Source: Corallococcus exiguus
GTDB lineage: Bacteria; Myxococcota; Myxococcia; Myxococcales; Myxococcaceae
Assembly (NCBI RefSeq): GCF_009909105.1
Contig: NZ_JAAAPK010000002.1
Location: forward strand, 349,827 to 413,826
DNA length: 64,000 nt
Direction: 5' to 3'
The notes under the pieces were generated by a model, which did not search any database, was not told where the DNA came from, and saw nothing but the letters and a program-made list of their open reading frames with translations. A program made the position numbers and the translations under genes. Numbering within the stretch: position 1 is the stretch's first letter; each line of letters opens with the position of its first letter. Below are positions 5,526 to 15,559 of the stretch, one piece after another.

Positions 5526-5616
5526 GGTGTTCGCCTTGCTCCGGAATTGGTGTTCGGCTTGTCCCGGAGCCGGTGTTCGGCTTGCTCCGGAATCGGTGAT
5601 CGGGATCGTCCGGAGC
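5526..5616. repeat. Intergenic tandem repeat, 4 units of ~22-24 bp (GGTGTTCGGCTTGCTCCGGAAT-like)
   Basis: Seen directly: ggtgttcgccttgctccggaat / tggtgttcggcttgtcccggagcc / ggtgttcggcttgctccggaat / cggtgatcgggatcgtccggagc. Confidence 0.5.
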
Positions 5617-5823
5617 ACGCATCCACCCTGAAGGGATGACGTTGAACCCAGAGGTGTCGCGGGCGCGTGACAGGTGGGCAGAGCCAGGGCGCTTCCTGGG
5701 GCAGGGAGAATTTCATGCGAGGGTGGCCCGGATGCGCGTTAGCCTGGAGTTCGCTTTACCAGCCACATCCCGCGCAACCATCGTTGAGATCCCTGCGCCT
5801 GCTCGGCGCGGAGAGGGAGAACC

Positions 5824-6888
5824 ATGCAGCGCTTTGTCCTCTTGGGTCTTGCACTGCTCACGGCCTGTGCAACGCCTGTCCATCAGGCCGCATCGCCTGT
5901 CCAGCCCAGCCCGGTCTACGTGTTCGAAGGCGTGGAGGTGTTCGGCTCACGCAAGGTGCCCAAGGGCAAGCTGCTGGAGGTCATTGGGATGCCTGCGCCC
6001 GGCGCGCGCTTCAACCTCGAGAAGGGGGAGTTCACGCCGTACCTCATGGAGAGCAAGCCGCGGCTCCTGGCGGCCTACAAGTTCGCGTTCTGCAGGTACT
6101 CGATGGTGGCCTACCCGCCGACGCGGACGTTCCGGGTGACGGTGGATCTGGTCGATGCCGGAGATGAGTGGCGCATGCCCTTTTCACCCGCGCCGCAGGG
6201 CGATATCCCGGAGCCGGAGGGCCTCCTCACGGCCTGGGATGAATACCAGACGGCCTACTGGAAGCTGAGCAGGGAAGGGGCTGTCCCCGAGTACGGCAAG
6301 AGCAAGTGCCATGCCCTCAACTGCCATGGAGGATTCGACCACCCCGAGCTCGCGCCGCTGGAGCAGCGCTTCATGGATGGTGTTCCCCGCAATCTCGACA
6401 CGCTGGTGCGGGTGCTGCGTGAGGATCGCAACGACTCCAAGCGAATGGCCACGGTCATGCTCCTGCCCTACATCAACTCACGCGAGCAACTGGTGAAGCT
6501 CGTTCTCCCGTCGGTGCGCGACCCCTACGAGGGTGTGCGCAACGAGGCGCTGCGCCTGCTGGGAACGATGCAGGAGGGACAGCCGCGGGTCATCATCCCG
6601 CTGGAGCCCGTGCTCGAAGCGCTCTGGTACCCGCTCGAGACCGACCGCAACAAGGCAGCCTGGGCGCTCGTGCACATCGTGGAAACCGAAGGCGCCGCCC
6701 AACAGCGGCAGATTCTCGACAAGGCGGGCGCGGTGCTGGTGGAGATGGCTGGAATGCAGCAGAAGACCGATGCCGAGCCTGCTCGCAAGGTGCTCGCCAT
6801 CCTGGCGGGGCGGGACCTGGGTGACGAGCCGGCGGCCTGGCACCGTTGGGTCGAGCAGACGCTCGGCTCGAACAGTGCCCATCGGTGA
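5824..6888 (+). CDS. Lipoprotein with HEAT/ARM-like C-terminal repeats
   Basis: Signal peptide + lipobox (LLGLALLTACATP). C-terminal half is helical-repeat-like. GGAGA RBS-like sequence upstream. Confidence 0.5.
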   Translation: MQRFVLLGLALLTACATPVHQAASPVQPSPVYVFEGVEVFGSRKVPKGKLLEVIGMPAPGARFNLEKGEFTPYLMESKPRLLAAYKFAFCRYSMVAYPPTRTFRVTVDLVDAGDEWRMPFSPAPQGDIPEPEGLLTAWDEYQTAYWKLSREGAVPEYGKSKCHALNCHGGFDHPELAPLEQRFMDGVPRNLDTLVRVLREDRNDSKRMATVMLLPYINSREQLVKLVLPSVRDPYEGVRNEALRLLGTMQEGQPRVIIPLEPVLEALWYPLETDRNKAAWALVHIVETEGAAQQRQILDKAGAVLVEMAGMQQKTDAEPARKVLAILAGRDLGDEPAAWHRWVEQTLGSNSAHR

Positions 6889-6939
6889 CGAAGATGCTGC
6901 GAAGGCGGCAGTACGGGGGGCGTAACCCCTGGAACGCAT

Positions 6940-7008
6940 TGGCGGTAGGGCACGGGAATCGAACTCGCCAGGGACTGCTCTCGCAGCCCCTCACCGGTTT
7001 TGAAGCCC
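6940..7008 (-). repeat. Partial duplicate of the 3' half of tRNA-Sec (att-like direct repeat, island boundary)
   Basis: 57 nt (6940..6996) are identical to the 3' end of the intact tRNA at 11867..11923 (tggcggtagggcacgggaatcgaactcgccagggactgctctcgcagcccctca). Similarity decays over the next ~12 nt. This copy lacks the 5' acceptor strand. Confidence 0.65.
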
Positions 7009-7153
7009 CGCCACCCCGATCCGCGAGGTGCCCGGGGGGATTGAGGGTCGGCCGGTTTCCCTCTGGCGCGGGGTGGACCGCGAGTCCGTAAAGGTCCACC
7101 CGCGTCCGTTCATCTTGGGTACAGCTTGGGTACGCGGGTAGGGACGGCAGGGG

Positions 7154-7762
7154 TCAGGGGGCATTGGCTGCACCGGGGCCGGTCACGTCCGTGAACTTCG
7201 TGCCGGTGATGACCGCGCGCTCCAGGGCCTCCTTGATCTCCTCGGACACGATCAAGGCCACGGTCCAGCCCCAGGTGCGGAACACCTTGGCGCCTTCCAC
7301 CTTCGCCGGGTCGATGCGCATCCCGGACACGGAGGAGTACGTACCCACCTTTTCGGGCATCCCGTCCTCCGGGGTCCAGTAACGCACCTCCTCGCACGCT
7401 GCATCGTCGATGCACTTCACCAGCCGGGTGGCGTTGAGGATGAAGTGCTGAGCGGGCTGGGAGTCGATCTCCACCGGGATGAGCTGCACGTCGTCGGGTG
7501 CCAGCTCGGTGAAGAAGGAGGCCACCCGGGCGTGGACGACGGGGATGCTGAATGCCGCGTGGGAATAGTCGAGCGGTTTGCCGGAGATCTTGATGGGGAT
7601 CCTGATGCGCTCGTCCGAGTGAGCCCGCTGCCCGATCCTGAACTGCCACGGGTCATCGAGCTTGCGCCCTTCCTGATCGAGAGGATGCCCCAGCTCCCAC
7701 CGGCCGGAGAGGTACACATCATCGCTCAACTTGAAGAACCGCGTCGGCATGAAGTCGTCCAT
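7154..7762 (-). CDS. Putative polymorphic-toxin immunity protein (second, possibly orphan; resembles DUF1629/Imm11-like proteins)
   Basis: 202-aa protein immediately downstream of the toxin and the first immunity gene in the same orientation. Family assignment is from memory and uncertain. Confidence 0.4.
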   Translation of the reverse strand: MDDFMPTRFFKLSDDVYLSGRWELGHPLDQEGRKLDDPWQFRIGQRAHSDERIRIPIKISGKPLDYSHAAFSIPVVHARVASFFTELAPDDVQLIPVEIDSQPAQHFILNATRLVKCIDDAACEEVRYWTPEDGMPEKVGTYSSVSGMRIDPAKVEGAKVFRTWGWTVALIVSEEIKEALERAVITGTKFTDVTGPGAANAP

Positions 7763-7772
7763 CCGAGGCGGG

Positions 7773-8126
7773 CTACTCTGGATCGAGCGCCCAGGTTCCT
7801 TCTTCCCAGCGCTTCAATGCCTGCCCGGCTTCAAAGGGAACGAGCCCCTTGCCCTTGGCGGCTTCCTCCAGAACCGCCTTCGCTTCGGCCGTCCGGTAGC
7901 GGAGCAGATGGGCGGCGGCCATGACACGCACATCCATGCGCTCATGCTTGAGCAGGACGAGGAGGGCATCACGTCCTGCGTTTCCATGGGCCAGGAGCGT
8001 ATCGACGGCGGCACCGTACTTCCTGGCGTGCTTGTTCCCGGTCTTGGCATCTCCCCGGAAGATGGCCTCGGTCTGTGCCGCCACGTTCAGGGCGAACTGC
8101 TCGACCAATCTCTCCAACGTCATCAC
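7773..8126 (-). CDS. DUF2019-like small helical immunity protein
   Basis: 117 aa. The MTLERLVEQFALNVAAQTEAIFRGDAKTGNKHARKY...VRVMAAAHLL...AEAKAVLEEAAKG...FEAGQALKRWEEGTW pattern matches the DUF2019 family as I recall it. Its start overlaps the toxin stop by 4 nt (ATGA). Confidence 0.5.
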   Translation of the reverse strand: MMTLERLVEQFALNVAAQTEAIFRGDAKTGNKHARKYGAAVDTLLAHGNAGRDALLVLLKHERMDVRVMAAAHLLRYRTAEAKAVLEEAAKGKGLVPFEAGQALKRWEEGTWALDPE

Positions 8127-9532
8127 CAGACCCCCTTCGCCACGTTCTCCATGGCCAGCAGCCCGAAGTCACGCTGGGCCTCGTAGGACTGCGTGCTCAA
8201 CCATTGCCTCACGGTCAAGGTGCTGGAGCCCGTGATACTACGCCGGATCGACGAGTAGAGCGCGCTGACGTCGGTGTGCAGGATCTTGTCCAGTGGGATG
8301 AGGTTCTCGGTGTTGTGGAGGGCCTGGGGGCCGAAGCGCTTCACGTTGCCCGGGGTTTGCTCGACGATGTGGTGCCACTCCTTGTTCTTGCCCGCCGGGC
8401 CCATGGCCTTCTTGAAACCACTGAACGAGCTCCAGGCCCTGTAGCCCAAGGGACGCGCCTTGGCGGAGGCGCTGCCGCCCGTGGCTTTGGCCGCCATGGC
8501 CACCGCGCCGGGCGCGAGGGCGATGGTGACGGTCTCGGCGCTCACGGCCACCGTTCCCACGTCCGCGACCGCCGCGAGCCTGATGCCCATTTGCGCTTCA
8601 GCCTGGACCGCCGCCTGCGCGGCGCCTGGGAGCATTGGCACCTTCGACCCCAGCCCCGCCGCCGTGTTCCCAATGGCGGCCGTGGCCAACATGGCGAACG
8701 CGCGCGCCGCGTTGCGGCCCATGACCTTGCCGTAGCGCTCACCCGCCTCGCGGAGTTCGTCAAACGTGGTGGCCCGCTCCGCCTCCTCCACCAGCTGCTT
8801 GAAGCCCAAGATGAGGCTCCAGAACGTATCGACCCCGACGTAGGCAATGAGGGAGGCGGTCATCACGGCGGCCACGCCCTTCGAGAAAGGCTCGGGCACC
8901 GCGAGCAAGATGCAGTACGTGGTCCACGTCCAAAGAACCGCAGCCATCATGGCCTGGGGATCAGCCATCTCTTTGAAGGCGTCCATCATCTCGTCCCGCA
9001 CGACGCCTTGGGCCAAGGCCATGGCCAGGGCGTAACGGCCATCCCCGGTGACAGTAGGGCTCTCCACCAGGAGGCGCAGGCAATCGCCGGGATTGCTCGT
9101 TCGCTCGCACCAGCGCAGGTATGCGCGCGTCAGATCCACCTCTGTCGAGGGGAGATCACCGTCCAGGTGTTCGCCCGGTCCCAGCGGGATGACACGGTGG
9201 CTGCGCGGCTCGTACAGGTATGAACCGCTGCGCGGATCCATCTCGAAAAACCGCCGGGCCGTTTCCTGGGGATGAGTGGACGGACGTACGTTCCGGGCGA
9301 GCGCTTCTACGGCTTCAACGAAGTCGTCTTCGTCCAGCGCCACCGGGGCGGTATCGCCGCTGCGTGGGGTAAGGACGATGGACTCGCCGTGGCCCGTGTG
9401 CAGGCGCACGGACTTCGTGGTGCCGCTGCATCCAGCCAGCATCACGAGCAGTAGGAGAATTGACCATCGTGGCAGCATGCGGAGCCCTCCTGGCGCGGGC
9501 CCCCTTCGCTCGGGAGCGTATCGGCGGCGCAA
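8123..9532 (-). CDS. SitA-like lipoprotein polymorphic toxin with C-terminal WHH/HNH-fold nuclease domain
   Basis: N-terminal signal peptide + lipobox (LLLLVMLAGCSG), a central Ala-rich region, and a C-terminus reading KEWHHIVEQ...HNTENLIPL...H. This is characteristic of the Tox-WHH (HNH superfamily) nuclease. The probable true start is the internal Met (MLPRW, ~9478). Confidence 0.55.
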   Translation of the reverse strand: MRRRYAPERRGPAPGGLRMLPRWSILLLLVMLAGCSGTTKSVRLHTGHGESIVLTPRSGDTAPVALDEDDFVEAVEALARNVRPSTHPQETARRFFEMDPRSGSYLYEPRSHRVIPLGPGEHLDGDLPSTEVDLTRAYLRWCERTSNPGDCLRLLVESPTVTGDGRYALAMALAQGVVRDEMMDAFKEMADPQAMMAAVLWTWTTYCILLAVPEPFSKGVAAVMTASLIAYVGVDTFWSLILGFKQLVEEAERATTFDELREAGERYGKVMGRNAARAFAMLATAAIGNTAAGLGSKVPMLPGAAQAAVQAEAQMGIRLAAVADVGTVAVSAETVTIALAPGAVAMAAKATGGSASAKARPLGYRAWSSFSGFKKAMGPAGKNKEWHHIVEQTPGNVKRFGPQALHNTENLIPLDKILHTDVSALYSSIRRSITGSSTLTVRQWLSTQSYEAQRDFGLLAMENVAKGVW

Positions 9533-9593
9533 GGCCTAGTAATACCAGATAGAGCTGACAGATGCTCCGGGCTGACGCCGTCTGTGGTGGAGC

Positions 9594-9989
9594 GTGTGCG
9601 GCCGACGGCGTGCCTTCTGGAACGTCACGCCGAGAGAGAGCGTGCGCTGTCAGCCCGGTCACCACAGCTTGAGCGTGAAAGGCCCCACCGAGCACCGGAC
9701 GGTTACCTTCGTCTCCGACGCGCGCCTGCCCTTGGACAACAACCGCTCCGAGGCAGCGCTGCGCAAAGCGGCGCTGGGCCGGAAGAACTTCCTCTTCGTC
9801 GGCCATGAGGCCGCGGGCGAAAACCTCGCTGGCCTCTACGCCCTCGTCGCCACCTGCGAAGCCAACGGCGTCAATCCCGAGGCCTACCTCGCCGACATGC
9901 TGCTGCGCGTCCAGACGCACCCGCTTGCGCGCGTCGGCGAGCCGCTGCCGCACGAATGGGAGCGGCTTCGCGCCGCCGACGCTTCCTGA
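9594..9989 (+). pseudogene. IS66-family transposase C-terminal fragment (remnant)
   Basis: DNNRSEAALRKAALGRKNFLFVGHEAAGENLAGLYALVATCEANGVNPEAYLADMLLRV matches the conserved C-terminus of IS66 TnpC. Only ~130 aa of a ~500-aa protein are present. Confidence 0.6.
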
Positions 9990-10183
9990 CGCCACCTCAC
10001 CACGGCATTTCTCCCCGCTGGGACTCGCGGCGCCCGCCGAGCACGGCCAGGGCCTGCCTTCAAGCTCGCCAACACGTCATTGGCCGGACAGTTACGATGG
10101 ATATAACATTTAGCTTGTTCTGGGGCCCCTCTCTGCGGTGGCCCGAACAGCGAGGGGACCAAGGGGCCGGTCTTGCCGAAGTG

Positions 10184-11782
10184 CTATTCACCAACAGGGG
10201 TGTCGATTGGTGGAACACCTTCCTTCTGTTGGGGGACCTGTGCAGAGGCGTTTGCCGGCTGTGCGGCAAGGTGAGTTGGAGTCAAGGAAGGGCTTGCATG
10301 AAGCATAGCTCTTAAGTCGTTTTCGATTTCAGAGAGTATTTTGAGATGAAATATGGCGAACTGGTCGGGATTGAGTCCTTGAGGAGAGGCTGCGCCCGAG
10401 AGTCTCTTGAAGACGTCCGCATGCTTCCTTCGTTTGACCGCTACTTTGTTGCCCTTTCCATGATCGACGTCGTGTCTGATTTCTGTGCGAAGCGTGTTTA
10501 CATCTATGAAGGAAGAAGGTGGCGACTCGCCGAGTCGCTCCCCAGGGCCTTCCCACAAAAGAAAGTAAAGGTTGTCGATCAGCTTTTCATATTCTGCGAC
10601 GTCCGAAATCAAAACTCCAAGGCTTCTCTGTGCCTTCAGGGTTTTGTTTGTTGGCTTGAAGAGGTCTTTGCCGGTGGCGGATTGAGATTTTGTGTTTATC
10701 TGCTCAATCAGTTCTGCGATTTGTTCTGCCTTGGCGAGGACGTCGGCCTTAGGAGTCGTTTTGGCGATGGCTGTGGCGCCAAAAGCACTGGCCAGTTCAG
10801 GGTTTTTGGTGAGGAGCTTTTTGGTGAGGATGCGCTGTCGGGCCTCTGGGCCGGATTTGATATTGGCGTTGATTGTCTTCTGGAATTCGAGGTAGTCGCG
10901 ATCGGTGGCCTTGACCCCTAGTTCTACTTGCTTGGAAAGCTCTTCTGTGAAGGCTTCGGCGAAGCTGGAGAACACCGTCTCGTGTCCAACGGCCTTTCCT
11001 GCTGAGACGAGCGTTGCCGCAAGGGTGAAGATTGATTGAACTATGGTCCGGTTGTGTAGTGCTGGGGAAGGGGCGGGAAAGGATTTGTCGAGAAAGGCTA
11101 GTGTTGATGTGATTCTTTTGGCGACCGCTGATTTTCTTGAGAATGTCGAGTTGTTTTCGAATATCAGCTTGAGGTCGTCAAAGCGAAGGCCTGTTGTGAT
11201 CCCCTTGATTTCGATTGCGCAGGCCTTGGCGGCAATGTCGAGATGTGAGTGGCGGTAGTCCTCGACTTGGCATTTTGACTTGAAAAAACTGTGCTTTGAT
11301 ACGTCGAGTGCGAAGTCGCGCAATTCGCTGTGAATGGCGTTTAGTCTCTCGCTGCTCGTGAGCGGAAGTCCGAGTTGGAGTCTTTGAAAGAACTCCTTGA
11401 GGTCTGATTCAATGGCCCCGGTGATTACGTCGTACTCGATCTCGAAGTCATCGAATTTGTCTGCTATCGCAGTTGGGAGTTCTTTGTAGAGTTTCCCTCC
11501 CATTTGAGTGGGAGAGTCCATAGGGATCTCAAGCTCATTTCCAAAGAAGCGCCAGATGGCCTGAAGGCGCTGCTGCCCGTCGACCACTTCGTACTGGTCG
11601 CTGTCGTTGGACTTCTTGACAAAGTAGAATTTTGGCAGCTTCCATCCGCGTAGGATGCTGTCGATAAGATTCTGCTGAAGCTTTTTGTCCCAGACTTTCC
11701 CGCGTTGCCAATCTGGAATCTCATAGCGACCGCGCCGTGCATAAATCTTGTCGAGAGACCTCTTCTCTGATCTCATTTCCAT
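10184..11782 (-). CDS. DUF262 (ParB/Srx-like nuclease domain, GmrSD N-terminal-like) protein; candidate anti-phage defence gene
   Basis: N-terminal IPDWQRGKVWDKK...VVDGQQRLQAI motif (the DGQQR signature of DUF262). The gene is conspicuously AT-rich relative to its flanks. No DUF1524 H..H motif is obvious in the C-terminal ~350 aa. Confidence 0.6.
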   Translation of the reverse strand: MEMRSEKRSLDKIYARRGRYEIPDWQRGKVWDKKLQQNLIDSILRGWKLPKFYFVKKSNDSDQYEVVDGQQRLQAIWRFFGNELEIPMDSPTQMGGKLYKELPTAIADKFDDFEIEYDVITGAIESDLKEFFQRLQLGLPLTSSERLNAIHSELRDFALDVSKHSFFKSKCQVEDYRHSHLDIAAKACAIEIKGITTGLRFDDLKLIFENNSTFSRKSAVAKRITSTLAFLDKSFPAPSPALHNRTIVQSIFTLAATLVSAGKAVGHETVFSSFAEAFTEELSKQVELGVKATDRDYLEFQKTINANIKSGPEARQRILTKKLLTKNPELASAFGATAIAKTTPKADVLAKAEQIAELIEQINTKSQSATGKDLFKPTNKTLKAQRSLGVLISDVAEYEKLIDNLYFLLWEGPGERLGESPPSSFIDVNTLRTEIRHDVDHGKGNKVAVKRRKHADVFKRLSGAASPQGLNPDQFAIFHLKILSEIENDLRAMLHASPSLTPTHLAAQPANASAQVPQQKEGVPPIDTPVGE

Positions 11783-11866
11783 GCTCGTGACCTCCTAAAA
11801 ACGCTGTTGTGAGTAGAGCGTCCCGCAACCCGTTCAGGGCCGCGTCAGAAAAACCCAAGGAAAACA

Positions 11867-11965
11867 TGGCGGTAGGGCACGGGAATCGAACTCGCCAGGG
11901 ACTGCTCTCGCAGCCCCTCATTGGTTTTGAAGACCAAGCCGGCCACCAGGTCCGGAGGCCCTACC
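11867..11965 (-). tRNA. selC: tRNA-Sec (anticodon UCA), ~99 nt
   Basis: Minus-strand sequence GGTAGGGC...TTGGT-CTTCAAA-ACCAA...GGCGAGTTCGATTCCCGT-GCCCTACC-G-CCA. Shows an 8-bp acceptor stem, a 7-nt anticodon loop with U33 and UCA at 34-36, a long variable arm, a TTCGATT T-loop, discriminator G, and an encoded CCA. D-arm and T-stem pairing were not fully verified by hand. Confidence 0.6.
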
Positions 11966-12007
11966 GCTTCCGATTACCGCCGCTCCGCCCCAGTCCGTCA
12001 ACCGCCG

Positions 12008-12976
12008 TCACGTCTTGCGCGCGGACACCACGGCGTACTCGTCGCAGTTGAACAGCGCGGGCCACTGGAGTTGCTCCGGTGTCATCCGCATCGCCTTGTG
12101 CACGTCCGCGCGCACCTGGTGCAGGGACGTGCTCCCCGGCTGCCTCTCCAGCTGCGTCATGCCCCGCAGCGCCACCAGCGCCGTGTTCACCGCCGGGTAC
12201 ACATCCTCCGCGATGGACTCCACCTTCGCGTCCTGGAACCCCGCCCGCCGCAGCTCCTCCCGGTATCGCTCCGTCGACCAGACGTTCTCCTCCGGGAAGG
12301 CAATCAGTCCCCGCCAGTAGCGGTAGCGCAGCCGCGCTCGGAGTCCTGCTCCAGCCTCACGGTCCGTCTTCTGCGCCATGTCCGCCATCACCAGCCGGCC
12401 TCCCGGCTTCAGCACCCGGAAGGCCTCGCGCAGGAAGTCCTGCCGCATCCGGAAGTGCATCGCGGACTCCAGCGCGAACACCACGTCGAACGCTCCCTCC
12501 GGCCCCGGCAGCGCCGTCGCGCTCCCCACCTCCAGCCGGACCACGCCCTCCAGCCCCGTCAGCTTCACGCGCTCCCGGCCCACCTTCACCTGGTTCGGCG
12601 TGATGTTCACCCCGACGATGCTCGCGGGCTTGAACTCCTCCGCCCACAGCAGGTCCTGGTCCGCGTACCCGAAGCCGCAGTCCAAGACGGCATCCCCAGG
12701 CCCCAGCTTCGCCGTCCTCGCCAACAGGCGCGCCATCTCCGCCTGGGCGGACCGGAACAGCTCACCCACGCGCTCCACGTTGGTGTCGTCCACCTTCTCC
12801 ACGTGCTTCCAGTAGCCCAGGTTGATCCAGAAGGGCTCCCGGCCCGTCGTCACCCGGATGTCGCTCGGCGCGGGCATCCCCGCCACCCAGGCTCCCGTCT
12901 CGTTCGTATAGAAGCGCTCCGGGTCCGCCAGAAACGCACTCTTCAGCCGCGTCGCGACCTGCCTCACGTTGACCAT
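12008..12976 (-). CDS. Class I SAM-dependent methyltransferase
   Basis: The VLDCGFGYADQD (motif I) and VKPGGRLVMAD motifs are present. Start chosen at MVNVRQ (the ORF table extends to 13033). Confidence 0.6.
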   Translation of the reverse strand: MVNVRQVATRLKSAFLADPERFYTNETGAWVAGMPAPSDIRVTTGREPFWINLGYWKHVEKVDDTNVERVGELFRSAQAEMARLLARTAKLGPGDAVLDCGFGYADQDLLWAEEFKPASIVGVNITPNQVKVGRERVKLTGLEGVVRLEVGSATALPGPEGAFDVVFALESAMHFRMRQDFLREAFRVLKPGGRLVMADMAQKTDREAGAGLRARLRYRYWRGLIAFPEENVWSTERYREELRRAGFQDAKVESIAEDVYPAVNTALVALRGMTQLERQPGSTSLHQVRADVHKAMRMTPEQLQWPALFNCDEYAVVSARKT

Positions 12977-13154
12977 CGCCAGCCTCCTGGGCCTTCCATC
13001 CGACGGCCGGAACCCTAGTCCGTGTCTCGGCAATTCCAGGCCTGGCCTGCATGACGGTTTTCACTGGTGAATGAAGCGGGGCCGCTCGTCCGGTGTCCCA
13101 GGGGACGCCTTGCCCGGCGCGTCATCCGAGCTTCATGATGAGCGCTCTTCCGCC

Positions 13155-15554
13155 ATGCGCCGAACCTTCCGTCCCGTCCCCCTGGCACCGGGCTTCCCAC
13201 CGGCGCTCGTCCTGCTGCTGTGTCTGTGTCTGTCCTTGAGCGTCGGGGCAGCCCCGGCGGCGACGAACGCCAGGCCGTTCCGCGTCGGGCCTCCCGCCGC
13301 GTGGGTGAAGCCGCTTCCCATTCCTCCAGACCCCGGCCCGACTCCCGAGGGCGAGGAGGAGACCAGCGTCTCCCGGCTGCTGATCGAGGAACAGGTGCGC
13401 GTGTCCGGCCCATCGCGCGTGCACTACCTGCACTCGGCCCAGAAGGTCCTCTCGCCGCGGGGCATCGACCGCGTCACGGACATCCAGTTCCGCTTCGATC
13501 CGACGTACCAGAAGCTCACCGTCCACGGCATCTGGCGCATCCGCGACGGCCGCCGCGAGGACGTCTTCCAGCCCGCCGAGGCCCGCGTCATCCAGCAGGA
13601 GACCGAGCTCCAGAACCGGCTCTACAACGGCAACCTCTCCGTGGTGCCCTTCCTCCACGACGTGCGCGTGGGCGACACCGTGGAGGTCGCGTACTCCTTC
13701 GAAGGCGCCAACCCCGTCTTTGGCGGACGCTTCTCCGACGTCGTCGGCGTGGGCCATTCCTATCCCGTGGTCCACTTCGCCTACCGGCTGCTGTGGCCGG
13801 AGGGGCGGGGGCGCACGCTCTTCATCCGGGACTTCGCCGCGCCGGGCCTGTCGCGCTCGGAGTCGATGCTGAACGGCGAGCGTGAAATCATCCTGGAGCG
13901 CCGCCACGTGCCCGCGGTCCGCCACGAGGACAACGTCCCCGGCTGGCAGCCCGTCTACCCGTGGATCCAGTTCAGCGAATACAAGGACTGGAACGACGTC
14001 GCGCGCTGGGCCTCCACGCTGTTCCAGGTGCCCGCCCGCTCGAAGTCGCTGGAGCAGGAGGTCCGCCGGCTTTCGAAGGAGCCCACCCCGGAGGCGCGCT
14101 TCCTCGCCGCGCTTCGCTTCGTCCAGGACGAGGTGCGCTACCTGGGCATCGAGATGGGCCCCAACTCCCACCAGCCCCATCCGCCCGACGAGGTCCTCCA
14201 GCGCCGCTTCGGCGACTGCAAGGACAAGTCGCTCCTCTTGGTGTCGCTCCTCAAGGGGCTGGGCATCGACGCGCAGCCGGCGCTCGTGAGCACGGACCTC
14301 ACGCAGCTGCTGGACGGCTTGCGTCCCACCGCCACCGCGTTCAACCACGTCATCGTCCACGCCACCGTGGCCGGCCGCGAGCTGTGGGTGGATCCCACGG
14401 CGACGCTGGAGCGCGGCGGGCTGGACAGCTACGAGCCGCCCTCCTACGGCCGGGCCCTCCTCGTCGCCCCCGGCACCACGGCGCTCTCCGTCATCCCCAC
14501 GCCCACGCTGACGGAGCCCTCCCTCTTCGTGGACGAGACCTACGTCGCGATGGGCCGCGACGGGGCCGCGACACTCGACGTCGTCACCACGCGCACGGGG
14601 GCGGCCGCCAACTCCATGCGCCGCGCGCTCGCGGGCACATCCCTGTCCGAGGTGTCCCGCCTCTACTTCAACTACTACGCGAAGACGGACGCGGACATCT
14701 CCATCGCGAAGCCCATGTCGGTGGACGACGACACCGTGACGAACGTGCTCGTCACGCAAGAGCACTACCGCATCGAGGACTTCTGGACCTCGGACGGTCG
14801 CCGGGAGTTCCGCGCGCATGGCCTGCGCCAGCACCTCGCCGTGCCGAACTACTCCCACCGCGCCTTCCCGCTGGAGGTGGAGCACCCCGTCTTCGCCCGC
14901 CACCGCATCACGCTGAAGGCCGGCGAGCTGCCCCCTGTCAAAACGGAGTACGAGGTCGTGGACGGTCCGGCCTTCCGCTTCGTGGCCGACACCCGCGCCG
15001 AAGGCAAGACGCTGCTGCTCGACTACAGCTATCGCAGCACCGCGGACTCGGTCCCGCCCGAGCGCATCGCCGAGTACGTGAAGGCCCTGCGCGCCACCGA
15101 GGCCCAGCGCGGCTACGCCATCCAACTCAGGAGCCGGGCCGCCCGCCACCAGGCCTCATCCGTTCCGTCCGGCGAGGCGGGTGCCATCCTCCTGGGCGTC
15201 ATCGCGACGTGCCTCGTGCTGTGGTTCGTCATCGCGCAGGGCGGCCCGGTCGCGCTCTGGCGCAAGGGCCGCGCCTGGGGCCGGCGCCGCGCCTTCGCAC
15301 GCAAGTTCGACGCGGACCACCGGGGCGACAGCGCAGGAACCGCCATCCCCATCACCAGCCCCCAGGAGCTGCTCTCCACGCTGGGCCGGCTGCGCTGCGC
15401 CTGCGGAGCCACCAGTGAGGCCCCACGGGAGTCGCTCCGCCACGAGGCCGTCGTCCTGGGCGACCGCCACCTCACCCTGGTGCAGTGGCAGTGCCCCACC
15501 TGCGCCCGAGCCCGCCGCGCCTACTTCGAGGACATGGGCTCGCGCGCCGCCTGA
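13155..15554 (+). CDS. DUF3857 + transglutaminase-like domain protein with C-terminal TM helix and Cys4 zinc-ribbon
   Basis: Signal peptide, then the transglutaminase core (RFGDCKDKSLLLVSLLKGLGI ... NHVIVHATV ... WVDPT: Cys-His-Asp triad). A C-terminal hydrophobic helix and CxxC...CPTC follow. Start at MRRTF (the ORF table starts at 13071). Confidence 0.6.
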   Translation: MRRTFRPVPLAPGFPPALVLLLCLCLSLSVGAAPAATNARPFRVGPPAAWVKPLPIPPDPGPTPEGEEETSVSRLLIEEQVRVSGPSRVHYLHSAQKVLSPRGIDRVTDIQFRFDPTYQKLTVHGIWRIRDGRREDVFQPAEARVIQQETELQNRLYNGNLSVVPFLHDVRVGDTVEVAYSFEGANPVFGGRFSDVVGVGHSYPVVHFAYRLLWPEGRGRTLFIRDFAAPGLSRSESMLNGEREIILERRHVPAVRHEDNVPGWQPVYPWIQFSEYKDWNDVARWASTLFQVPARSKSLEQEVRRLSKEPTPEARFLAALRFVQDEVRYLGIEMGPNSHQPHPPDEVLQRRFGDCKDKSLLLVSLLKGLGIDAQPALVSTDLTQLLDGLRPTATAFNHVIVHATVAGRELWVDPTATLERGGLDSYEPPSYGRALLVAPGTTALSVIPTPTLTEPSLFVDETYVAMGRDGAATLDVVTTRTGAAANSMRRALAGTSLSEVSRLYFNYYAKTDADISIAKPMSVDDDTVTNVLVTQEHYRIEDFWTSDGRREFRAHGLRQHLAVPNYSHRAFPLEVEHPVFARHRITLKAGELPPVKTEYEVVDGPAFRFVADTRAEGKTLLLDYSYRSTADSVPPERIAEYVKALRATEAQRGYAIQLRSRAARHQASSVPSGEAGAILLGVIATCLVLWFVIAQGGPVALWRKGRAWGRRRAFARKFDADHRGDSAGTAIPITSPQELLSTLGRLRCACGATSEAPRESLRHEAVVLGDRHLTLVQWQCPTCARARRAYFEDMGSRAA

Positions 15555-15559
15555 GACGC

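Follow-up and report, generated by a model that had tools for sequence, protein, structure and literature searches.

Results

The tRNA-Sec gene and its partial copy

The stretch of DNA analyzed here, referred to as the window, is a 64-kb region of the Corallococcus exiguus contig NZ_JAAAPK010000002.1, and the feature under study is the interval 6940-11965 within it, where an intact gene for selenocysteine tRNA (tRNA-Sec, selC) and a partial copy of its 3' part enclose a lipoprotein toxin gene, two immunity-like genes, a transposase stump and a low-GC gene of the DUF262 kind (Table 1). An earlier note, written from the letters of this DNA, had taken the arrangement for the footprint of site-specific integration into the 3' end of a tRNA gene. 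The comparisons presented below bear this out, and the interval is very probably the immobilised remnant of a small integrative element specific for the tRNA-Sec gene of Corallococcus. Gene calling between the repeats by GC3 periodicity (G+C at third codon positions) and open reading frame (ORF) calls gave five genes.

Table 1 Features of the tRNA-Sec island and its borders, in window coordinates
Feature	Position	Strand	Evidence
Native tRNA-Sec 3' flank, displaced	6897..6939	-	Match to C. coralloides KYC2213
Partial tRNA-Sec copy (attR core)	6940..7008	-	Repeat search; blastn; tRNA positions 34-99 = 6940-7005, anticodon loop to CCA
Far arm (P side), element-derived	7009..7132	-	87% to BB11-1 far arm (L023 13633-13751); two TACCCAAG motifs
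Imm11-family immunity-like gene, 202 aa	7154..7762	-	Pfam Imm11 46.8 bits, cutoff 22.1
DUF2019 protein, 117 aa, candidate SitI	7773..8126	-	Pfam DUF2019 26.8 bits, cutoff 23.3
SitA5-family polymorphic lipoprotein toxin, 469 aa	8123..9532	-	NCBIfam NF050093 SitA5_escort 388.3 bits, cutoff 160
IS66-family transposase stump	9594..9989	+	Pfam DDE_Tnp_IS66, IS66_C; NCBIfam transpos_IS66
Low-GC solo ParB-like DUF262 gene, 532 aa, DGQQR motif	10184..11782	-	Pfam GmrSD_N 74 bits
Integrase-proximal arm remnant (P' side)	11805..11866	-	90-96% identity to L005, L017, L022, L023
Intact tRNA-Sec, anticodon UCA	11867..11965	-	ARAGORN; Rfam RF01852 68.9 bits
tRNA-side att core (attL) = tRNA 3' 66 nt, anticodon loop to CCA	11867-11932	-	Repeat comparison

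A single tRNA was called by ARAGORN in the 64-kb window, a tRNA-SeC with anticodon tca, and its Rfam score stands well above the gathering score of 47. The 8-bp acceptor stem (GGTAGGGC/GCCCTACC), the discriminator G, the long variable arm and the encoded CCA agree with the intact, unusually long tRNA that had been described at first sight, and the gene has the same sequence as that of C. aberystwythensis (100%), while the tRNA-Sec genes of seven more Corallococcus are 96% identical to it.

The second copy of its 3' part is equally real, although its perfect portion is shorter than the 57 nt originally claimed: 6940-6993 is identical to 11867-11920 over 54 nt, and the likeness extends to 7005/7008 with 64/66 (blastn) or 66/69 matches, the two copies being told apart by CC against TT and by a C against A. 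None of the shuffled controls gave any match (0/100), the whole 64-kb window holds no att copy beyond these two, and neither half of the repeat recurs in it. A direct repeat of the 3' part of tRNA-Sec at the far boundary of the island is thus confirmed. When scored as a tRNA-Sec by Rfam, the partial copy reached 33.5 bits, which is under the threshold, and it is therefore a tRNA fragment.

The block common to the live tRNA and the far copy starts in the anticodon loop (CTTCAAAA...) and ends at CCA, both in the window and in strain BB11-1 (locus L023; L numbers denote the loci and contigs compared), and 5' of this point GGCGGGGC stands in the far copy, a sequence that belongs to the element and not to the tRNA. 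The tRNA-like piece of strain CA047B (L022) starts at about the same point of the anticodon loop. Between the far cores of the window and BB11-1, 1/66 positions differ, as against 20/123 in the adjoining arms (Fisher p = 0.001), so that the core has barely decayed since it was last under constraint.

Integrase-bearing relatives and the arms of the element

Nineteen loci were fetched with the S-adenosylmethionine (SAM) methyltransferase beside the tRNA (12008-13033) as query, and further integrase loci were obtained by a search with the integrase of the L005/L017 type and by look-up of its closest relatives. At the protein level the window is 95% identical to C. coralloides. In every Corallococcus locus that reaches past the methyltransferase, tRNA-Sec follows it, and in six of these loci the alignment with the window stops exactly at the 3' end of the tRNA. 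It stops about 50 nt past the tRNA in C. interemptor (L017) and C. llansteffanensis (L005), in both of which an ORF of 381 residues with a Phage_integrase match starts about 110 nt after tRNA-Sec, and the stretch between tRNA and integrase that these two share with the window amounts to 49-52 nt.

A tyrosine integrase of this kind is placed about 110 nt behind tRNA-Sec in four loci, L005, L017, BB11-1 and L030. Other members of the family were recognised in BB11-1, where behind tRNA-Sec come an integrase with a frameshift and four small genes, and where a second copy of tRNA-Sec, 67 nt long, lies 3.9 kb away; on metagenome contig L030, where an 87%-identical integrase lies beside a diverged tRNA-Sec; and in CA047B, where the integrase is preceded by a degenerate tRNA-Sec-like piece. 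This piece (L022 9760-9890) corresponds to tRNA positions 29-99 at 88.7% identity, with a possible decayed 5' half carrying an 18-nt insertion. The CA047B element has no live tRNA and its left flank is made up of housekeeping-type genes (FolD, PyrD), an arrangement that may be a rearrangement or a secondary site.

In the larger relatives (L005, L017 and L022), about 7-8 kb hold the integrase and a low-GC slot of variable content, together with an excisionase-like gene of the HTH_17 kind and a gene for a DUF3854/DUF5906 backbone protein that matches phage primases (PHROG DNA primase). Defence candidates in their cargo slot comprise a Leo-like GTPase with a DUF4145 protein, PDC-S57, PDC-M34B and an HNH effector-like gene. 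The DUF262 gene of the window occupies the place that the integrase and the cargo slot take in these relatives.

Both borders of the window island are homologous to this family. On the tRNA side, 11815-11866 is matched at 90-96% identity by the sequence that directly follows the tRNA (in L022, the tRNA-like piece) in the four relatives named in Table 1; the homology ends about 60 nt past the tRNA, before the position of the motif pair and the integrase, and the ribosome-binding site and start codon of the DUF262 gene fall within about 25 nt after its end. On the opposite side, the far arm matches that of BB11-1 and, at 77% identity, an older remnant in C. carmarthensis (L002 14516-14701). Given the homology of the BB11-1 far arm to window 7009-7132, both ends of the window island derive from one integrase-bearing family.

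The motif TACCCAAG occurs at 7114-7121 and 7125-7132 of the far arm, 11 bp apart and 105-125 nt inside the island, and these are its two matches in the 64-kb window, where 0.28 would be expected by chance. Pairs with the same 11-bp spacing lie on the integrase side 70-90 nt beyond the tRNA in L005, L022 and L023; L017 has one exact copy and a one-mismatch copy (TACCCAAA) with the same spacing, and the far arm of BB11-1 has degenerate versions at the equivalent place. Unlike in these relatives, the pair is absent from the integrase-side arm of the window. We infer that the TACCCAAG pairs are candidate arm-type binding sites of the integrase.

Outside the far copy, the 43 nt of displaced flank match the sequence after the live tRNA-Sec of C. 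coralloides (L001 11099-11209 against window 7008-6897, 92.9%), an agreement to be expected had the original 3' end of the gene been moved there along with the flank native to it. In L001 the live tRNA is followed by the same 43 nt, beyond which the two genomes diverge.

No integrase or recombinase was found in the island or in the whole 64-kb window by ORF, Pfam and tblastn searches, and tblastn across the window likewise found no homologue of the primase or the excisionase. Relatives with the same junction carry an integrase that the window copy is without, and the latter is therefore a remnant, as the view of a decayed island that has lost its integrase had held.

By tblastn against 50,697 phage records the integrase had no match, nothing was found for it among viral contigs, and neither the arm/core junction nor the tRNA core was found among metagenome and viral contigs. 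Homologues with 44-47% identity (Melittangium, Myxococcus stipitatus and Corallococcus sp. AB011P) lie in no case beside a tRNA, so targeting of tRNA-Sec is not to be generalised to the wider family; it appears, from the genomes compared, to be confined to a Corallococcus-centred clade. The integrases of AB011P and M. stipitatus use other targets. In the former (L029 8520-21185) a 46%-identical integrase is situated between similar DUF2381-kinase-kinase sets with no tRNA nearby, and in the latter (L028) the genes beside a 44%-identical one are phage-like (PolA, PDDEXK, methylase and VapE). UniRef also records an integrase of 94% identity (Q5ZPC0) from 'Archangium disciforme', in an old deposit of a single gene cluster, which suggests that the same element borders the sequenced locus in that strain.

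tRNA-Sec as a variable locus in Corallococcus

The content after tRNA-Sec differs in every Corallococcus genome sampled, and this is therefore a hypervariable point. A ParA-like gene lies downstream of tRNA-Sec in C. carmarthensis, and the two C. exercitus strains have there a giant extracellular contractile injection system (eCIS)/UCH protein and an AlkZ-like gene plus a nonribosomal peptide synthetase (NRPS). In CA053C, low-GC DNA about 1.7 kb after tRNA-Sec (L006 11285-12887) holds a complete Pycsar pair, consisting of a cyclic nucleotide monophosphate (cNMP)-binding TIR effector (up to 371 bits in PADLOC; 335 with the PycTIR model) and a PycC cyclase (346 bits); no integrase was found near the pair within the 4 kb available.

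None of the island genes is present intact within 10 kb downstream of tRNA-Sec in the sampled Corallococcus loci. Fragments of them occur in C. aberystwythensis (L004 11247-11440), where the 3' end of the toxin gene and pieces of the DUF2019 gene, 85% identical to the window genes and with an internal deletion of 184 nt, lie about 100 nt from tRNA-Sec. The older remnant of C. carmarthensis comprises an arm and a core with 15/64 core differences, and the tRNA-Sec site has therefore been used more than once. Two genes that precede tRNA-Sec in the window and in the other Corallococcus genomes, one of them DUF3857/transglutaminase-like and the other that of the SAM methyltransferase, are missing from strain BB11-1 (window 12004-15557 against L023 9733-9752), so the upstream side of the tRNA is variable too.

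Variability extends to the genes left of the island. None of the eight Corallococcus loci with tRNA-Sec has the genes for the HEAT-repeat lipoprotein or the PMT-like glycosyltransferase in the 10 kb that follow it, and the best homologues of the lipoprotein gene (5824-6888), 87% identical, have different genes on both sides. The lipoprotein gene is, as its distribution in sequenced genomes indicates, a portable, patchily distributed module, and with homologues so patchy and in such unrelated neighbourhoods it cannot serve as a conserved outer flank. The region 5711-6889 recurs at 87% DNA identity in two read-archive contigs (L024/L025) with an IS66 fragment adjacent, and a homologue in Hyalangium rubrum (L026; 78% protein and 82% DNA identity) is located inside a cluster of the ribosomally synthesized and post-translationally modified peptide (RiPP)-like kind with YcaO, TfuA and lanthipeptide-dehydratase genes.

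Genes between the repeats

The cargo families that had been named at first sight, a SitA-like toxin with two immunity-like genes, an IS66 stump and a low-GC DUF262 gene, were all matched by Pfam or NCBIfam models. The SitA5 escort domain spans residues 27-292 of the toxin, and a lipobox, LAGC, can be read from the translation (...LLLLVMLAGCSG...) without a signal-peptide predictor. The nuclease part of the original description is less well founded: the C-terminal module carries a His-rich 'EWHHIVEQ...HNTENLIPLD' ('WHH...HN') motif, its last 120 residues match Pfam HNH_2 weakly (E = 0.11, 12.8 bits, cutoff 21), and the module may be an HNH-type nuclease. The start of the DUF2019 gene overlaps the toxin stop by 4 nt, and the Imm11 gene follows 10 nt after the DUF2019 gene. 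The DUF2019 protein is a candidate for the cognate immunity protein (SitI) of the SitA5 toxin, and the Imm11 gene is possibly a second, orphan immunity gene.

The IS66 stump keeps the last 75-100 residues of the transposase and falls short of a full-length transposase, covering profile positions 241-283 of 284 in Pfam DDE_Tnp_IS66 and 314-386 of 387 in NCBIfam transpos_IS66 (77.6 bits against a cutoff of 180).

The DUF262 gene stands in a block with a GC content of about 0.50 (10050-11850), against about 65% at 7000-10000 and 65-70% around the block. Its top PADLOC match is the Menshen sensor NsnA (94 bits). In the C-terminal 320 residues no DUF1524 or other nuclease domain was recognised by Pfam at E up to 10, and a Protein Data Bank (PDB) search with the C-terminal half returned no significant solved relative. 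No NsnB or NsnC gene stands beside it, the downstream neighbour being the IS66 stump and the upstream one the tRNA. In GmrSD, DUF262 and a C-terminal DUF1524 HNH domain are joined in one protein, and in Menshen NsnA is followed by NsnB and NsnC; with neither these neighbours nor a nuclease domain found, the solo DUF262 gene is not a complete known system. The label of a defence island that had been put on the interval thus holds for this gene at the level of its domain, which marks it as defence-like cargo, and does not extend to a recognised complete system.

Anticodon-stem alleles of tRNA-Sec

Most Corallococcus tRNA-Sec genes have an anticodon stem of CCGG/CCGG, whereas those of the window and C. 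aberystwythensis have TTGG/CCAA, a difference of two fully compensated pairs (window 11921-11945 against 6994-7008), and the displaced copy in the window has CCGG. In the sequence beside the tRNA, C. coralloides, with CCGG, comes closest to the window. The exchange point possibly lies 3' of the anticodon stem, with the CCGG of the far copy being element sequence; alternatively, integration may have occurred in a CCGG host whose live tRNA allele was later changed or replaced. The flanks give a star-like phylogeny in which all pairs diverge by about 10%, and so the stem polymorphism and the flank phylogeny together do not place the crossover point. A variant variable arm, GCGCT...GGCGT, is found in C. 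llansteffanensis (L005) and in the element-linked fragment of CA047B (L022), and the distribution of tRNA-Sec alleles shows no obvious fit to the flank phylogeny. C. aberystwythensis, the one other genome with the TTGG/CCAA allele, is also the one with the sitI and toxin fragments by tRNA-Sec.

Discussion

Origin of the island

The break of synteny with nine Corallococcus loci at the very 3' end of the tRNA, the integrase in relatives, the homology of the far arm to that of BB11-1 and the 43-nt native flank together speak for site-specific integration. In the explanation that we favour, the intact element, as its relatives show it, begins with a tyrosine integrase of 381 residues and continues with a low-GC cargo slot of variable content, an excisionase-like HTH_17 gene and, last, a gene of the primase/helicase-like kind (DUF3854 plus DUF5906). 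Its attachment site would have contained 66 nt of tRNA-Sec sequence, reaching from the anticodon loop as far as CCA, between two arms that each carried a TACCCAAG pair with a spacing of one helical turn. By recombining with the tRNA gene of the chromosome, the element would come to lie just downstream of that gene, the element's own copy restoring the tRNA and the original 3' part being pushed with its native flank to the far end as a direct repeat. Later this genome would have lost the backbone (integrase, excisionase and primase) along with the motif pair on the integrase side, probably through IS66 activity and deletions, leaving between the att cores the solo DUF262 gene, the IS66 stump and the sitA5-sitI-Imm11 cassette. 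With the motif pair, integrase, excisionase and primase gone, the island is fixed and incapable of self-excision. As for the cargo, the SitA5 toxin would pass to neighbours by outer-membrane exchange and kill cells without the immunity gene, and the DUF262 gene may restrict phage.

Several observations weigh against this explanation. No sampled integrase-bearing element has a sitAI cassette, and the toxin module may therefore have arrived separately. The far ends of L005, L017 and L022 lie past contig ends or past the fetched DNA, so that the two-arm picture rests on one complete element, that of BB11-1. The live TTGG/CCAA stem and the displaced CCGG do not fit a single recent crossover at the anticodon loop without an extra assumption. 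Neither an excised form nor integrase activity has been observed. Finally, a clean empty site, with the tRNA followed by the left-flank genes of the window, was found in no sampled genome, and the specific form that the earlier note had proposed, selC abutting the lipoprotein gene, was likewise seen in none of them. Variability of the left flank accounts for the missing exact empty site, and the nearest substitute for it is the 43-nt flank that the window has in common with C. coralloides.

A history of accretion has nearly, though not quite, an even chance of being the right account. In it, the same tRNA would have received at least two independent insertions, by tandem integration or with cargo arriving otherwise, which internal deletions later fused, and the DUF262 and sitAI blocks would have separate histories. 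The sharp GC mosaic fits it, as does the position of the IS66 stump exactly between the two blocks, and the sitI remnants of C. aberystwythensis lie by tRNA-Sec without a DUF262 block; the diverged att remnant of C. carmarthensis adds evidence of repeated use of the site. Against accretion, the window has two att cores only, so any intermediate junction must have been deleted. It differs from the element remnant favoured here in history and not in mechanism.

It is improbable, by contrast, that the island is still mobilisable in cis, with a related integrase from another part of the genome or from an incoming element excising it or carrying it along. The nearly undecayed 66-nt cores, the perfect TACCCAAG pair kept in the far arm and a live tRNA that is still a usable target would allow it, but the integrase-side arm has been cut about 60 nt from the tRNA and is without its motif pair, and homologues of neither the integrase nor the excisionase are encoded in the 64-kb window. 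A repeat made by local duplication around the tRNA, with decay of one copy and ordinary chromosomal genes in between, was rejected as hardly credible despite the missing integrase, since the inner flank of the partial copy is element arm and not tRNA, this sequence 5' of the copy being homologous to the far arm that an integrase-bearing island of another species has, the repeat starts at the anticodon loop in three independent loci, and the intervening genes are absent from all related loci.

Beyond the remnant itself, a wider proposal can be entertained, with considerable doubt, that a dedicated Corallococcus family of satellite-like elements, with integrase, cargo slot, excisionase and primase and using only tRNA-Sec, shuttles anti-phage systems and kin-discrimination toxins and may also drive turnover and compensatory evolution of the tRNA alleles. 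Such turnover is conceivable, since at every integration the copy of the element takes the place of the 3' two-thirds of tRNA-Sec, and the idea is pointed to by the TTGG/CCAA stems of the window and C. aberystwythensis and by the variant variable arm of C. llansteffanensis and the CA047B element.

Comparison with known systems

Islands at selC are well known from enterobacteria, where LEE, SPI-3, SHI-2 and the retronphage phiR73 target this tRNA gene with tyrosine integrases. The Corallococcus island resembles them in its tRNA-Sec target, in the intact tRNA at one end and the 3' direct repeat at the other, in the integrase beside the tRNA of intact relatives, in its accessory toxin and defence cargo and in the repeated, strain-variable use of the site. 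It differs in its myxobacterial host, in the long 66-nt core beginning at the anticodon loop and in the missing integrase of the window copy; the relatives' integrase has no match among the phage records searched, and its 44-47% homologues in other myxobacteria lie beside no tRNA. On the remark that selC-anchored islands are not a described feature of myxobacteria, a literature search of limited extent found no paper combining selC or tRNA-Sec, islands or integrases and myxobacteria. The island is of a known kind, at a target not previously noted in this bacterial group.

In Myxococcus, SitA toxins are delivered by TraAB outer-membrane exchange and kill kin that are not protected by SitI immunity (PMC5562445, PMC8546572), and sitAI loci are reported to lie frequently on mobile DNA (PMC8546572, PMC5562445). 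The window cassette agrees with this pattern in its SitA5 escort domain, lipobox, variable C-terminal module, overlapping immunity-like gene and location on mobile DNA. Unlike the Myxococcus loci it has a second immunity-like gene, Imm11, and belongs to a tRNA-Sec island and not to an Mx-alpha prophage-like unit; its C-terminal domain has no significant Pfam nuclease match.

Phage satellites such as the P4-like ones combine an integrase, an excisionase, a primase and a hotspot for defence cargo on small elements. L005, L017 and L022 are alike in having an integrase, a low-GC defence slot, an HTH_17 excisionase-like gene and a primase/helicase-like gene. In contrast to P4-like satellites, no capsid-hijacking, packaging or transfer genes were identified in them, no helper phage is known, their proteins have no close match in phage records, and the window is without any backbone.

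The Menshen system consists of an NsnA-like gene, the NsnB ATPase and the NsnC effector (PMC12065111). The DUF262 protein of the window shares with the GmrSD, SspE and NsnA proteins the N-terminal ParB-DUF262 domain, the DGQQR motif and a setting in low-GC island DNA; it differs from GmrSD in having no detected DUF1524/HNH domain and from Menshen in its neighbours.

Overall, tRNA-Sec is a recombination hotspot in Corallococcus at which toxin, immunity and defence genes are swapped between species, and the responsible integrase family has been identified along with the motifs to which it probably binds. What is generally understood about tRNA-linked islands is unchanged by this. The results are of use for the annotation of myxobacterial genomes and for tracing the spread of sitAI kin-recognition cassettes, the integrase and its att site are a candidate tool for site-specific integration in Corallococcus, and the element family, the att anatomy and the puzzle of the tRNA alleles deserve the attention of specialists.

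Outside the island, an overlapping tandem repeat of 23 nt (GGTGTTCGGCTTGCTCCGGAA-like) was observed at 5526-5616 of the window, between the PMT-like glycosyltransferase and HEAT lipoprotein genes, with three 45-nt family copies offset by 23 nt.

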